From Pyrodictiaceae archaeon (GTDB lineage Archaea > Thermoproteota > Thermoprotei_A > Sulfolobales > Pyrodictiaceae), in NCBI GenBank assembly GCA_027028845.1, contig JALVHV010000144.1, positions 1 to 54,070 on the forward strand: 54,070 nucleotides of DNA, written 5' to 3'. Position numbers and translations under genes: made by a program. Each line of letters starts with the position of its first letter. Within the stretch, counting starts at the first letter, position 1. Positions 10,881 through 16,176 of this stretch are shown here, piece by piece. The notes below the pieces were generated by a model, which saw nothing but the letters and a program-made list of their open reading frames with translations, did no database searches and was not told where the DNA came from.

Positions 10881-10968
10881 TGGTGCGGGGGGTGGGATTT
10901 GAACCCACGCAGGCCTACGCCAGCGGGTCCTCAGCCCGCCCCCTTTGACCTGGCTCGGGCACCCCCGC
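10881..10968 (-). tRNA. tRNA-Leu(GAG)
   Basis: GCGGGGG acceptor, GCGGG-CT-GAG-GA-CCCGC anticodon arm, variable arm, GTTCAAATC, encoded CCA. Confidence 0.97.
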
Positions 10969-11030
10969 ACCCGTGCCCATGTATTGTCTTTAGACTAGGG
11001 ATAGGGGAGGAGTTTTTGTAGCTTAAGGTG

Positions 11031-11157
11031 TGGCGCCGGGGGCGGGATTTGAACCCGCGCGCCCCTTGCGGGGCAGTGGGTCTCCCGCTACCAACTGGGG
11101 AGCCGGAAAATACCCTGGTCTCGAGCCCACCGCCTTGGACCGCTCGGCCACCCCGGC
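11031..11157 (-). tRNA. tRNA-Ser(CGA) with 38-nt intron at 37/38 (11082-11119)
   Basis: GTGGG-CT-CGA-G[intron]A-CCCAC; central helix CTCG/CGGG with an AG^A bulge (relaxed BHB); long variable arm; GCCA end. Confidence 0.93.
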
Positions 11158-11260
11158 GCCCAGAGGGTATTTCGCCATTATAGTAACGTGTTGTACTGTT
11201 TTGCTCACTTATTTTTTACTCGGCAAAGAGGGATGGTGGTTATTCGTGTTTACAGGTAGG

Positions 11261-12181
11261 CTAGACGGGGACATATACGGGGTTCTCATCTGTAGCGTGA
11301 TCCTTTATCGTTTCTAGTAACTCCCTTATTGGTTTTGGCAGACTGAACATCCATGTATGGGTTTCCTCGTCGTAGAAGCGTAGACTAGTTCCTATTCTCT
11401 CTCTTAGCCGCTTGGCAACCTCCTCTCTGCTAAGATCCTTAGGGCTTAGCTTATCCGAGCCCGTAACGAACCCCCAGAGCCCATTATAGCTTCTAACGTA
11501 TGTTACGTACGGTGTGGCTATCTTGAATACCCTGGCTATACTATTTCTTACGACAGCGTAGACGCGGGGCGTTAGTGTAGGCGAGGTTGCCTGAGTAACC
11601 ATGATACCCTCTCCCCTCAGCACCTCTCTTACTTTCTCATAGAACTCAACTGTATAGAGTTTGGTAGCAGGGCCACCTTCAGTGGGATCCACTAGATCCA
11701 GGATTACCACGTCAAAGTACTCGCCACGCCTAGCAGCATTAGTTATGTATTCCCGGCCATCCCCTATTACGAGCCTAACCCGCTCATCATTGAAGGAGCC
11801 CTGGTGCCATTCTCCTAGATGCTTCTTAGCGAACTCGATAACATCCTTATCTATATCAACCATGACTACTTCTTCAACACTCCTATGTCTTAACACCTCG
11901 CGTATCGTAGCCCCCTCACCGCCTCCCAGTACAAGTACTCTCCGTGGCCTTGGATGCGTTATCATAACTGGGTGAACAAGGGCCTCATGATACCAGTGCT
12001 CGTCGAGGAGACTACTCTGAACCTTACCATCAATTACAAGTGACTTACCAAGACCACTAAGCTCCGCGACCATAACCTCCTGGAACCTAGTACGCTTCTC
12101 TGCTAAAACGCTCACTATTTCGCGGAAACAGCCCTCTCCCTCACTAATCCACTCAACTACAAGCTTCCAAGGCAGCTTCAT
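11261..12181 (-). CDS. speE: Polyamine aminopropyltransferase (spermidine synthase)
   Basis: IDGKVQ, YHEALVHP, VLVLGGGEG, VDID, FDVVILDLVDP; start at ATG 12181 behind GGAGAGG. Confidence 0.93.
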   Translation of the reverse strand: MKLPWKLVVEWISEGEGCFREIVSVLAEKRTRFQEVMVAELSGLGKSLVIDGKVQSSLLDEHWYHEALVHPVMITHPRPRRVLVLGGGEGATIREVLRHRSVEEVVMVDIDKDVIEFAKKHLGEWHQGSFNDERVRLVIGDGREYITNAARRGEYFDVVILDLVDPTEGGPATKLYTVEFYEKVREVLRGEGIMVTQATSPTLTPRVYAVVRNSIARVFKIATPYVTYVRSYNGLWGFVTGSDKLSPKDLSREEVAKRLRERIGTSLRFYDEETHTWMFSLPKPIRELLETIKDHATDENPVYVPV

Positions 12182-12265
12182 TGCCAATAACGACCTCTCC
12201 ACAAAAACTACGAAAACCCAAAGAAGGGGGTTAAAATGAGCCAAGCCCCGTCACTGATAACGAGA

Positions 12266-12329
12266 GTGGCTCGGACGCGCGGGTTCTCTTCATCCTTTAT
12301 CAGACGGTGGATCACTCCGCACAGCCCAC
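12266..12329 (-). ncRNA. Candidate box C/D guide sRNA with variant C box (tRNA-Ser-complementary guides)
   Basis: Minus strand: GTGCGGA (variant C), guide GTGATCCACCGT, D' CTGA, C' ATGAAGA, guide GAACCCGCGCGT, D CCGA, short terminal stem; upstream TTTATAA near 12380. Confidence 0.5.
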
Positions 12330-12482
12330 ATACTCCATACAATAACTCCAAGAACAATTATACGAAGGAGATATATGTTATAAAGAAGCAAGAGGAAGTG
12401 ATGAATTCGACATAACTTCTTGACCGTAAAGGATTTACTCTAGTAAGCTAGAGAACCTAAGCACTATATCATGGAGAGTGCT

Positions 12483-12560
12483 GGGCCCGTCGTCTAGCCT
12501 GGTTAGGACGCCGCCCTCACACGGCGGAGGTCCGGGGTTCAAATCCCCGCGGGCCCACCA
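12483..12560 (+). tRNA. tRNA-Val(CAC)
   Basis: GGGCCCG acceptor, CCGCC-CT-CAC-AC-GGCGG, GTTCAAATC, CCA. Confidence 0.97.
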
Positions 12561-12700
12561 TTCCTTTCTAAGTAATTCCTACATGCCTCGTCCTTGGAGG
12601 AAATGTTCTGGGCACAAAGCATATATAGGGTCTTCGCGGCAAAAGCGCCTCTGGCCGAATCCTTGCCTAGAAGGAGGCCAAGAAGAGAATCGGGGGAACA

Positions 12701-13000
12701 GTGTTGAAGTTCTGCCCGCGATGCGGCGGTTTAATGATACCAGTAGGCAAGCAAGGGGACAAGATTATACTCAAGTGTACACGGTGCGGCTACGTGGAAG
12801 TTGTTGATGGTAAACAGCTTAAGGATTATACGCTAAAGGAGGAGACTCCTGCCGAGGAGCGGACAATAACAACGCTGAAAGTTAGTGAAGCTAAGAAGAA
12901 GCCGCCTAAGTCGCTCGAGGAGTGGGAGCAGGAGCGAGAAGAGTACCGAGAAGTATTGCAGGAACTGCTACAAGAAGAGCTCGAAGGCGGCGAGGAATAA
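12701..13000 (+). CDS. TFS/RpoM-like zinc-ribbon protein lacking the C-terminal catalytic ribbon
   Basis: FCPRCGGLM...LKCTRCGY N-terminal ribbon; acidic helical tail instead of a second CxxC ribbon. Confidence 0.8.
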   Translation: MLKFCPRCGGLMIPVGKQGDKIILKCTRCGYVEVVDGKQLKDYTLKEETPAEERTITTLKVSEAKKKPPKSLEEWEQEREEYREVLQELLQEELEGGEE

Positions 13001-13130
13001 CATAATGACAATGTAGTAGATGCGTGCACGCAGTTACTCATGTTACTAGCTAGGTAGTACTCGGCTTTCTGCCTATTTTGATAAAGACTTTAGACCCGTA
13101 TTCCTAGTAGTAATAGTTAATGGTGTTGGT

Positions 13131-13218
13131 GCGGGGGTGCCCGAGCCAGGTCGAAGGGGGCGGGCTTAAGACCCGCTGGCGTAGGCCGGCGTGGGTTCAA
13201 ATCCCACCCCCCGCACCA
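13131..13218 (+). tRNA. tRNA-Leu(TAA)
   Basis: GCGGG-CT-TAA-GA-CCCGC, variable arm, CCA. Confidence 0.97.
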
Positions 13219-13400
13219 TCCTCTTCCCTGTAGTTCTCGCATCTTGGGCTGGAGAGGCTTGCGTTAAGAACGCTGAATGTAGACTTGTCGATAACTGCTT
13301 AACACAAGAATATCATCAATACTGGTGCTGGGATAAAATTACTAAAAAAGTCTGTTATGTTGTTTTAGGTACTGGTTTATCATTGTACTTTTGTACTTTC

Positions 13401-13955
13401 CTAGTCTAGGTGTTCTCTTAGTATTTTCGTGGCTTCGTCGTAGAGTTGTGGTGGTTCTAAGCCTTTTAGCTCCTCTAGTTTCTTTGCTAGCTCCTCTTCT
13501 CTCAACGCGGTTCTTAGCCATGTTGTGAGGTACCCTGTTCGCAGAACGTAGCTAAGTTCTTCTGGCTCTACGAGGCCATAGACTACTGTGGCTGCTAGTT
13601 GGCGCTTGTTCTTAATCCTTAGTGGTACTACTGAGCCCTTGACTAGGAAGTAGAAGGGCTCTATGAGCTGCTCGCTGGGCTTAGGTGTCACCACCTCCTC
13701 TACTGGTTGTTCCTCGCTTGGCTTCTCCGCCTCAGCTGCCTCTGTTCCAAGGAGTTGTAGTGCTTTCTCAGTTATCTTTGCAACCGAGCCTACTCGCTCT
13801 ACGAGGCCGCTGCGCTCTAGCTCTGCTAAGTACTTCCTAACAGTTGATGAGCGAAGCCCCACGGTGGTTGCTATTGTCTGTATATCTGCTTCTTTTTTCT
13901 CGGCCAGGAGCTCCAGGATCCGCTTCTTTGACTCGGTTAGGTTCTCTAGGCTCAA
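13401..13955 (-). CDS. Winged-helix DNA-binding protein with DUF5752-like C-terminal domain
   Basis: wHTH (ILELL...IATTVGLRSSTVRKYLAELERSGLV), acidic linker, then PFYF...WLRTALREEELAKKL. Confidence 0.75.
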   Translation of the reverse strand: MSLENLTESKKRILELLAEKKEADIQTIATTVGLRSSTVRKYLAELERSGLVERVGSVAKITEKALQLLGTEAAEAEKPSEEQPVEEVVTPKPSEQLIEPFYFLVKGSVVPLRIKNKRQLAATVVYGLVEPEELSYVLRTGYLTTWLRTALREEELAKKLEELKGLEPPQLYDEATKILREHLD

Positions 13956-14035
13956 GGGAGGATACCCACTCTCTTTCCTTCCACTTACTCTCTCTAGCAG
14001 CAGAGATCTAGTTTAAAGATAATACGCCTCGAGCA

Positions 14036-15451
14036 CTATGCGCACTCGGCGTCTAGCCTTATCGTGGCTACTACGGGGCCTTGCCTAGTAAAGACTATTG
14101 CCTCGCCAGGTCTTAGGGACGAGGCTATTTCACTTAGCTCTCTAACACCTATAATGTGGCTAAGGAATTCCTTGTCCTTCTCTCCTATCATTCTATGGAT
14201 TATCAGCGTGTTTAGATTAGTTTGTGCAACCACTGGTAGGAGAGATGGTGTATGAGTTACTATTATTAGTCCTAGTTTATACTTCCTGGCCTCCTGCAAC
14301 ATTACAGGAACAATATCCAGGTCGAGAAGGTTATGGGCCTCCTCAATAACGACTACAAGTCCCGGCGAAGCAGCGTGTCCTAGCTTTGAGAAATAGAGCC
14401 CGTAGAGGAGGAAGTATGCGTAAAGCCTCCTAGCTCTAAGGGAACGAATAGACGATAAGTCAACAACTACTACTCCTCCCGGATCCCTTATCGTGTCCGG
14501 GAATGAGTCATAGACTTTGAAAAGATCCTCGTACCCACTCGTTATGAATATCTGTATTCTACGGATAAGCGCGGACCAAATCTCCCTCTCAGAACGCGTT
14601 ATCTGTGCCGAGACCTCCTCATAGGCGCTGAGAAGTAGTGTGTAGAGATCGCGGAGGCTACTTCCCAGGCCAAGAGGGTTTCGCTCAAAGAGCTTGCTAA
14701 GGGTATTAAACATAGTTGAGCCGAGCGCATTCTCGGTACGTTTAAGCTCCTCGGGCGTTAGTACACCTGAGACTAGCGCTAGCAAAAGAGAGAGTATCGA
14801 TGTCTGAAATGGGCTGAGATTAAGCACATGCTCAAGAATATCTATTGAGACCTCTAAGGGCATATTAGTATTCACTAAAGGCAGACTTGGTGCTGAGGGA
14901 TAGCTTAGTAGCTTATACTCAACGCCTATCTCTCTGAGCAACCGTGCATATTCCCCGTGCCAGTCTAGAACTAGGATACCTAGTCCTTTACTCGATAAGC
15001 AGCGAGCTAGTCTAGCGGCTGTATGAGTCTTACCGGAACCCGTTGATCCAAGAACCCATATATGTCGCCAGACATCATCAATCTCTATGCAAAGCCTCTT
15101 CGATCCAACAAAGCCAAGCACAAAACACTCGCCACCCGGGGGCTCAACTAGACCCGTATCAAGAAACCCGGCCTCGGATAGCGGTAACGGCATCACGTTA
15201 TCCGATACACAGTCCTGCGGTTTCTTCGCCTCTTCTATGACAAGCCCCGGGGCTTCGAGAAGAGCCACCGAGGAGTCATTGTTCACAACTATGTAGGAGT
15301 AGCATACTCCCCTCCTACATTCATAAACATATCTAGCACCAAGCTTATCCAGTAGTTTGTAATAGCTATCTACTACGCTATAGAAGCTACGCGAGTACTG
15401 CCTTACGCAAAGAACTCTCCGACGACGCAGCTGATGCTGTATTAGCCTCAC
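14036..15451 (-). CDS. HerA/FtsK-superfamily (DUF87) ATPase
   Basis: RHIWVLGSTGSGKT, LDWHGEY, VVVIEEAH, EARKYKLGLIIVTH. Confidence 0.85.
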   Translation of the reverse strand: MRLIQHQLRRRRVLCVRQYSRSFYSVVDSYYKLLDKLGARYVYECRRGVCYSYIVVNNDSSVALLEAPGLVIEEAKKPQDCVSDNVMPLPLSEAGFLDTGLVEPPGGECFVLGFVGSKRLCIEIDDVWRHIWVLGSTGSGKTHTAARLARCLSSKGLGILVLDWHGEYARLLREIGVEYKLLSYPSAPSLPLVNTNMPLEVSIDILEHVLNLSPFQTSILSLLLALVSGVLTPEELKRTENALGSTMFNTLSKLFERNPLGLGSSLRDLYTLLLSAYEEVSAQITRSEREIWSALIRRIQIFITSGYEDLFKVYDSFPDTIRDPGGVVVVDLSSIRSLRARRLYAYFLLYGLYFSKLGHAASPGLVVVIEEAHNLLDLDIVPVMLQEARKYKLGLIIVTHTPSLLPVVAQTNLNTLIIHRMIGEKDKEFLSHIIGVRELSEIASSLRPGEAIVFTRQGPVVATIRLDAECA

Positions 15452-15584
15452 TAGGTACCCCGGCTAAGGAATCGCCCTTGATAATGATAGAGAGATAGGA
15501 GTAACTAAGCCGAGAACTCAGCACCGATAATTGAAGCTAGCTCTAGATAAATCTCAGCGTGTGAGGCGGTAAGGGAAGAAGGTT

Positions 15585-15663
15585 TGGTGCGGCGGCCGGG
15601 ATTTGAACCCGGGATCACCGGCTTGGAAGGCCGGCGTCCTAGTCCAGGCTAGACGACCGCCGC
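15585..15663 (-). tRNA. tRNA-Gly(TCC)
   Basis: GCGGCGG acceptor, CCGGC-CT-TCC-AA-GCCGG, CCA. Confidence 0.97.
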
Positions 15664-15720
15664 TCCTCAAGCCCAATTACGAAGTCTTATACTCCCCTCC
15701 CAGGGGTATATTTGCCTTGG

Positions 15721-15787
15721 TGGTGCTGAGAAGAGGGTCTCTTGACCATCCCGGACGGGATGAAGATAGCCGGAAAAGCTGAGACCA
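15721..15787 (+). ncRNA. Candidate box C/D guide sRNA with variant C box (guide complementary to tRNA-Ser intron)
   Basis: C GTGCTGA 15723, 12-nt guide, D' TTGA 15742, hairpin CATCCC/GGGATG, C' ATGAAGA 15760, guide TAGCCGGAAAAG, D CTGA 15779, TGGT/ACCA ends. Confidence 0.55.
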
Positions 15788-15850
15788 GTATGGTCTTGTA
15801 AGCGGCAAGTCTTAAGAAGGGGAACCTATATCGCTGTAATCTTCACGGGT

Positions 15851-15925
15851 GCCGCCGTAGCTCAGCGGGAGAGCGCCCGGCTGAAGACCGGGCGGTCCGG
15901 GGTTCGAATCCCCGCGGCGGCACCA
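15851..15925 (+). tRNA. tRNA-Phe(GAA)
   Basis: GCCGCCG acceptor, CCCGG-CT-GAA-GA-CCGGG, GTTCGAATC, CCA. Confidence 0.97.
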
Positions 15926-16115: not shown

Positions 16116-16176
16116 CACTTATAGAGGGGGTCTGCATAGGCTTCTCCGCGGGATGTGGGTAGCGAGGTGGTATGGG

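Follow-up and report, generated by a model that had tools for sequence, protein, structure and literature searches.

Several archaeal box C/D guides are known to depend on an intron-containing tRNA precursor. The intron of euryarchaeal pre-tRNA-Trp encodes a box C/D RNA for Cm34 and Um39 (PMC7994747, PMC11408192, PMC2584109), and part of the pairing of the pre-tRNA-Trp and pre-tRNA-Met guides is with the intron, these guides having to do their work ahead of splicing (PMC2584109). Pyrococcus sR49 and the haloarchaeal guide for Cm34 of pre-tRNA-Met are free-standing, act in trans and need the intron-containing precursor, part of the intron pairing for C34 of one tRNA (PMC2584109). In archaeal double-guide sRNAs, two guides bind one RNA at sites less than 100 nt apart, one propping up its weaker partner (PMC4644070, PMC6009581); the scan of Lui et al. 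was confined to mature tRNA and rRNA, and they called dual guides on tRNA uncommon (PMC6009581). Sac-sR20 of Sulfolobus acidocaldarius was catalogued by Dennis et al. (2015, PMC4644070), where it is listed as an expressed RNA, with the value 7230, in an RNA-seq-derived table and has computationally predicted targets at 23S U2222 and C2186 (alignment numbering, 36 nt apart); a second table row labelled 'Sac sR20' gives 23S A971/G1011. That paper gives rRNA targets only, states that tRNA targets were not compiled and, in its accessible text, gives no intron tag or pre-tRNA target. The other papers, too, are cited here for their accessible text.

In this study, we describe a member of the same family in a 54,070-nt stretch of DNA from a Pyrodictiaceae archaeon (the window: contig C144 of genome G000, an assembly 87% complete and 1.39 Mb in size), together with a short element, the tag, in the intron of pre-tRNA-Ser(CGA). 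Sequence comparison suggests, with moderate confidence, that this is a dual-guide sRNA with two substrates, 23S rRNA helices 69/71 and intron-containing pre-tRNAs: on the latter, docking of the D guide on the tag would let the D' guide bridge the 3' splice junction and specify C39 for 2'-O-methylation ahead of splicing. As with the pre-tRNA-Trp guide, the site would be position 39 of a precursor, the pairing includes the intron and the action would precede splicing. In pre-tRNA-Trp, however, the intron itself does the guiding. Here the guiding RNA has a gene of its own, the intron contributes no more than a target tag, and one guide would be common to several tRNAs and rRNA. An intron-encoded guide is excluded here, the sRNA locus lying 4.6 kb away and the 38-nt intron being shorter than the 60-nt box span of the sRNA. 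Like the sR49 type, the sRNA is free-standing and would act in trans on an intron-containing precursor, but it differs in having an entire second guide whose pairing lies wholly within the intron, position 39 at the 3' junction as its site, and a tag that is found in four tRNA species. The wobble base C34 is not the target, as in all 73 of 73 rows N+5 of the D' guide is G-C paired with C39. The arrangement also resembles that of the double-guide sRNAs; in contrast to those scanned by Lui et al., splicing removes the second site, which lies in the intron. A wholly intronic tag common to several tRNAs and read by an rRNA guide has no account in the accessible text of PMC7994747, PMC11408192, PMC6009581, PMC4644070, PMC7668247 and PMC2584109 or in wider searches of the literature outside subscription journals, which do not establish absence from print. 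Precursor-specific C/D guides and Sac-sR20 were already known; within the literature searched, the intron tag in Ser, Leu and Cys tRNAs is new here.

Locus and family of the sRNA

The sRNA gene (Table 1) sits between tRNA-Gly on the minus strand and tRNA-Phe on the plus strand. A six-tRNA-gene cluster occupies positions 10881-15925 of the window, just upstream of a ribosomal protein run starting at 16153, which we take from the translations to be S13-S4-S11-RpoD-like. The locus is a canonical archaeal box C/D sRNA with two 12-nt guides and the boxes C, D', C' and D in order, and would assemble with L7Ae, Nop5 and fibrillarin. Most homologues have GUGAUGA or AUGAUGA as the C box, and their D'-C' hairpins differ in sequence and length. 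The fold of the sRNA is not significant (z-score -1.46), no Rfam sR family matched above its gathering threshold (best sR scores 9.8-10.8 bits, thresholds 36-50), and reads of X1, the single RNA run found for this genome, cover only the tRNAs that flank 15721-15787.

Table 1. Positions in the window of the sRNA, the precursor and their paired elements
Feature	Position	Strand	Basis or remark
Box C/D sRNA, Sac-sR20 homologue	15721..15787	+	Box layout, homologues, model R1
C box variant GUGCUGA	15723..15729	+	Sequence; one change from RUGAUGA
D' guide	15730..15741	+	Pairs with pre-tRNA 3' splice junction (N+5 = C39) and 23S helix 69 (N+5 = E. coli C1920 equivalent)
D' box UUGA	15742..15745	+	Sequence
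Variable D'-C' hairpin	15747..15762	+	Fold prediction; 3' arm runs into C'
C' box AUGAAGA	15760..15766	+	Sequence
D guide	15767..15778	+	10 bp with intron tag, 7 bp with 23S helix 71 (N+5 = E. coli U1956 equivalent)
D box CUGA	15779..15782	+	Sequence
Pre-tRNA-Ser(CGA) gene, intron at 37/38	11031..11157	-	Rfam tRNA match; ARAGORN with intron option
38-nt intron	11082..11119	-	5' exon end CUCGAG, 3' exon start ACCCAC
Intron docking tag (putative) UUUUCCGGCU	11101..11110	-	D guide N+5 nucleotide = U at 11107
3' splice-junction target GAG/ACCC of D' guide	11078..11084	-	Predicted methyl site C39 at 11080

All 30 of the 30 BLAST loci fetched have the identical box layout, with near-invariant guides. 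Model R1, a sequence-only model built from 29 close homologues, matches 137 of 151 genomes of the order (E<=0.05, weak matches included); outside the order, families f15-f17 were positive and no match was obtained in f14 (0/7) or f18 (0/9). When 40 further R1 matches were fetched, 39 proved to be true homologues and one (G066) false. The D box is intact in 79 of 85 parsed homologues, and all six with a degenerate box belong to f8; f9 gave no clear member of the sR20 family. Named contigs with homologues, among the matches listed, are those of Pyrolobus, Ignisphaera and Desulfurococcales; together with the Sulfolobus homologue they suggest a crenarchaeal host of the Sulfolobales/Desulfurococcales group. 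A scan of the collection with an 18-base gapped pattern gave, among the matches listed, mostly chance bacterial ones, few archaeal rows being useful.

One homologue (L262 of G060; R1 E 4.6e-8) is letter-identical to the printed Sac-sR20, both guides being homologous and in the same order. On the alignment of Dennis et al., U2222 and C2186 lie in helices 71 and 69 and are, by our own counting, the equivalents of E. coli U1956 and C1920, the same predicted sites as those of the window's sRNA. The family is therefore already known, with a published computational rRNA assignment. G004 has two near-identical copies of the sRNA region (C13:1114-1254 and C16:188721-188861), a real duplication or a strain mixture. 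A second C/D sRNA of G000 (C77:25082-25152, minus strand; also matched at G004:C7:405754-405823) has a D' guide almost identical to that of the first but displaced by one base, and its D guide forms 8 bp with helix 71 and has U-U at N+5; it is probably a diverged duplicate, and no intron tag matching it was found in five relatives.

Pairing with the precursor and with 23S rRNA

The sequence-only reading had proposed that the D guide matches 10 nt of the intron of a nearby pre-tRNA-Ser(CGA) and that the D' guide is complementary to its 3' splice junction. Both matches are exact: the D guide at 15768-15777 equals plus-strand 11101-11110 and forms 10 contiguous Watson-Crick bp with the intron, and the D' guide end GGGTCTC forms 7 contiguous bp with GAG/ACCC across the junction. 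(The intron boundary given by ARAGORN, i(39,46), differs from that in Table 1 and was not used.) Chance, which that reading had put at roughly 1 in 10^4, has to be restated as about 0.007 expected 10-mer matches in a stable-RNA target space of 7,253 nt, made up of the 29 tRNA genes of G000 and the 16S and 23S of the near-identical G004; the rRNA of G000 itself is unassembled (0/1 for 16S and 23S), and that of relatives was used. A longer match in rRNA, named by that reading as a refutation, was not found for the D guide, and within the target space the intron is its best site (10 bp), followed by 7 bp in 23S. The 7-bp D' match is by itself unspecific, tying with sites in 23S, 16S and tRNA-Cys. 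The case against chance rests on conservation and covariation. As to 'nearby', the sRNA and the tRNA-Ser gene are about 4.6 kb apart here and in G003, but the distance is not conserved (137 kb in G012, about 670 kb in G009), and the proximity is incidental. Two kinds of candidate site were set aside. Perfect 12-nt D' matches elsewhere in G000 (C129, C160) lie outside called tRNAs, in flanks that resemble ordinary coding sequence, and were treated as chance; candidate 16S sites of 7-8 bp were no better than the alternatives.

By the measure of about 9 bp or more with a Watson-Crick pair at N+5, the D guide reaches 10 bp on the intron. The D' guide forms 9 bp on helix 69, one G-U included, in the window's family, against the 7 contiguous bp on the tRNA junction; its 6-7 bp on tRNA fall below the 9 bp that the field uses as the criterion for a guide duplex (PMC4644070). 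Computed duplex energies in G000 are -15.8 kcal/mol for D:intron, -13.3 for D:helix 71, -13.4 for D':junction and -13.4 for D':helix 69. Opening both target segments of the pre-tRNA costs about 10.7 kcal/mol in a 37 C model, which counts against docking.

Several guide positions speak for rRNA. In all 62 of 62 genomes, position -8 of the D' guide has a pairing partner in helix 69 and none in tRNA, where the duplex keeps a fixed mismatch; D' -11 pairs with helix 69 in 55 of these genomes and with tRNA in one, and D -4 with rRNA in 62 and with the intron in 51. A change at guide position -9 in G065 matches a helix-71 variant of four genomes in its genus, while no intron tag matching this guide variant was found (0/5 genomes). 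In the window's family, helix 69 has a U beside the target, so that the invariant G at D' -6 pairs with U in rRNA and with C40 in tRNA. Since several invariant guide positions fit only rRNA, both targets look real, and the simplest reading looks to be that of one guide under two constraints, 23S rRNA and pre-tRNA. An observation on the rRNA itself is that the 23S of G038 (L031) is about 100 nt longer than the other four, with a break immediately following the helix-69 target that is probably an rRNA intron; a similar break, or simply a lack of assembly, may account for many of the genomes in which our retrieval gave no helix-71 site.

Covariation and distribution of the intron tag

For covariation we took the 62 genomes in which an sRNA with intact boxes and a tagged intron occur together, entered each as one row and excluded any genome lacking either. 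At D -8, the guide is Watson-Crick paired with its own intron in 60/62 rows against 45/62 (plus 17 G-U) at the rRNA site; the pair is C-G or U-A, the latter in f13, f6 and parts of f2 and f10. The same comparison gives 53/62 against 11/62 at D -11, where A-U, C-G, U-A and G-C are all seen, and 43/62 (G-C and C-G included) against 3/62 at D -3. The helix-71 site is UUCCGGCGC in 44 of the 50 genomes in which it was retrieved, the other six being f8, and being fixed it does not explain these guide changes. On the other side of the sRNA, D' -2 is Watson-Crick paired with the penultimate base of the intron in 62/62 and with helix 69 in 0/62 (7 G-U), as U-A, as G-C in seven f13 genomes and as C-G in G078; D' -3 switches to A-U in G050. 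Because the last bases of the intron are absent from the spliced tRNA, the D' covariation points to the precursor. In f13, the 5' junction and the spliced tRNA stay GAG-ACC while the guide tracks the intron 3' end, which argues that the partner is the 3' junction of the precursor. The pairing needs intron nucleotides, the D target being wholly intronic and D' -2/-3 covarying with the intron's last bases. Among 20,000 within-family target shuffles, the observed score was reached by 13 at D -8, 8 at D -11, none at D -2/-3 and 351 at D' -2/-3; these figures overstate significance, as genera remain related, members of one family do not count as independent, and the shuffles were made without a tree. 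The D guide N+5 forms a Watson-Crick pair with the intron U in 61/62, with a mismatch in G058. A mismatch at -8 in G110 counts against docking.

Of 82 Ser(CGA) genes parsed, a non-random sample of the 30 best BLAST matches to this tagged gene and 52 spanning families, 70 have an intron, 14-61 nt long and otherwise unrelated in sequence. The D-guide target UCC(G/A)GC is present in 62 of these 70 introns against 1.31 expected from base-shuffling in this non-random sample; G046 carries the A-variant, and two of the eight untagged introns (G058, G077) are single-base variants. An independent pattern search with a stricter tag placed it upstream of a T-arm in 93 of 151 genomes, some of the matches not being introns, and the reversed-pattern control in the same genomes gave two matches in one genome. 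The tag is also present in Leu(CAA), Leu(UAA) and Cys(GCA) introns, and is absent from six other intron-bearing tRNA calls in G000. Every tagged intron is followed by an exon starting ACC, outside f13 mostly after GAG, and the spacing from the tag's N+5 U to C39 is 16-30 nt. A tRNA-Ser(UGA) gene, L099 (G039:C53:31207-31321), has an untagged intron with a GAG/CCGG-type junction, as would be expected if the tag accompanies only 3' exons that start with ACC.

The sequence-only reading had named guide conservation in species with a different or absent intron as a refutation. Taken literally, such conservation exists. No tagged intron was found in G040 and G159 (f13, both with an intact sRNA) or in G059 (sRNA likewise intact, genome 87% complete), and in G040 and G159 introns are still present though untagged. 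Elsewhere the tag has another home: Ser(CGA) is intron-less in G031, G042, G052 and G062 of f4, where the tag is in a Cys intron instead, and in G043 and G053, where it is in a Leu(CAA) intron. In the latter two, which are one lineage, the anticodon stem of the intron-less Ser(CGA) gives the D' guide a 10-bp run unaided, which is suggestive support for the D' guide acting on tRNA-Ser(CGA); the run was not seen in six other intron-less Ser(CGA) cases. Outside the order, sRNA and tag co-occur in f15-f17, and f14 shows neither. Decay of the D box in five f8 genomes goes with a Ser intron that is untagged (four) or missing (one). G125 has tagged introns and degenerate sRNA boxes, which counts against docking. 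'Tag-like' matches away from the sRNA in f8 were rejected as antisense tRNA-like pieces or unrelated DNA, not introns.

Mechanism and competing explanations

The proposal of a trans-acting guide that engages the intron-containing precursor has thus gained from the guide-intron covariation found across relatives. A guide aimed at the intron holds up as far as complementarity goes; Cm39 on the exon is, however, a likelier useful product than a methyl group on a discarded intron, and the sequence-only reading missed both the 23S assignment and the tag in Leu and Cys introns. In the mechanism that we propose, the strong D:intron duplex (8-12 bp) would tether the sRNP to the precursor, and both guides would bind at once, the intron duplex making up for the weak D' duplex (6-7 bp, a mismatch and 2 bp). 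The latter would form across the 3' bulge and the anticodon-stem strand, and fibrillarin would methylate C39. Cm39 would be the selected product, the intron U possibly being methylated as a by-product. Methylation would precede cleavage because the D' guide would cover the 3' bulge and the strand of the anticodon stem, both of which the splicing endonuclease has to recognise; D'-junction pairing is incompatible with the bulge-helix-bulge, and would have to come before cleavage. The two precursor targets run colinear and antiparallel to the guides, with the D target on the 5' side of the D' target, so that a short linker suffices; the order on rRNA is the opposite. In the accessible text of Wolff et al. 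(2020), no Cm39 is given for Ser(CGA), only 6 of 21 intron-derived S. acidocaldarius tRNAs having been isolated; the tables and supplements of that paper may bear on it.

Some of the same observations would also follow if the sRNP bound the precursor by both guides and the selected effect were on folding or splicing, the bulge-helix-bulge being held open, gated or chaperoned, with C39 methylation weak or absent. Such a role, with no useful methylation, is almost as compatible with the sequence evidence, given that covariation shows pairing and not catalysis, that the D' duplex is short with its conserved mismatch at -8, that the D' guide covers the scissile bulge, and that a D' box shift in G009, G012, G016 and G077 would move N+5 off C39 with the pairing kept. 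Against it stand the invariant G-C pair of N+5 with C39, although rRNA imposes the same base, and the untagged genomes G040 and G159, which still have introns; on balance we regard it as unlikely. Still less probable is that methylation of the intron U is itself functional, marking or stabilising the excised intron, or that the tagged intron or precursor titrates the sRNP off rRNA. The intron duplex is indeed the strongest for the D guide (median -15.8 against -13.3 kcal/mol for helix 71, and stronger in 51/62), with its nearly constant Watson-Crick pair at N+5, but this leaves unexplained why D' -2/-3 tracks the intron 3' end in 62/62 and why an ACC exon start lies 16-30 nt from every tag.

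That the sRNA acts only on 23S rRNA, with the intron likeness due to chance, shared ancestry or an unrelated constraint, is strongly disfavoured and seems to us very improbable. It can draw on the published U2222/C2186 assignment (PMC4644070, accessible text), on the preference of D' -8, D' -11 and D -4 for rRNA, on the sRNA being kept without a tag in G040 and G159, and on the G065 change that follows helix 71 and not a tag. It fails to explain how frequent tagged Ser(CGA) introns are, why four different tRNAs have the tag and why four positions show compensatory changes with the rRNA fixed, and the data support rRNA as a second target, not the sole one.

Beyond the proposed docking and C39 methylation, and with clearly less confidence, the tag could be a portable intron barcode that mimics an rRNA target and so recruits a ribosomal guide; on gaining the tag, a Ser, Leu or Cys tRNA would come under a common sRNP checkpoint, at which its anticodon stem is modified and its splice site held back until that step is complete. 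If so, short introns would gain a selected function, and tRNA maturation would be tied to ribosome biogenesis via one limiting guide. As to why archaea keep short tRNA introns, a covarying tag would give such introns a concrete job, testable in genetically tractable Sulfolobales: an intron element of 6-10 nt is conserved across an order and beyond, has reached four kinds of tRNA and evolves in concert with an sRNA already known to be expressed. It also suggests that rRNA and pre-tRNA can together shape one guide, and that some 'orphan' or weak archaeal guides have been overlooked because published target scans used mature tRNAs only.

A few variants of the system deserve mention. In G016, G012, G009 and G077 (L010, L011, L015, L282), the D' box lies one base further from the guide, which would move N+5 from C39/C1920 to A38/A1919 unless a base bulges. 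In g14 of f4 (L256-L259), D' -11 is C, so that the helix-69 pair is lost and a pair with G45 of the intron-less tRNA-Ser(CGA) gained. The untagged Ser(CGA) introns of f8 (L072, L074, L318 and L320, in G035, G055, G074 and G157) have a common motif, GGTT...CGCCGC...GAG, alongside sR20 homologues whose boxes have decayed, and a different guide may have taken over in these four genomes. In f9 (L371, L377), another C/D sRNA resembling the published IHOsR418 has a D' guide with GCGCUGGAAG, which would pair over 8 bp with the A-variant tag of the G046 Ser intron (L069).
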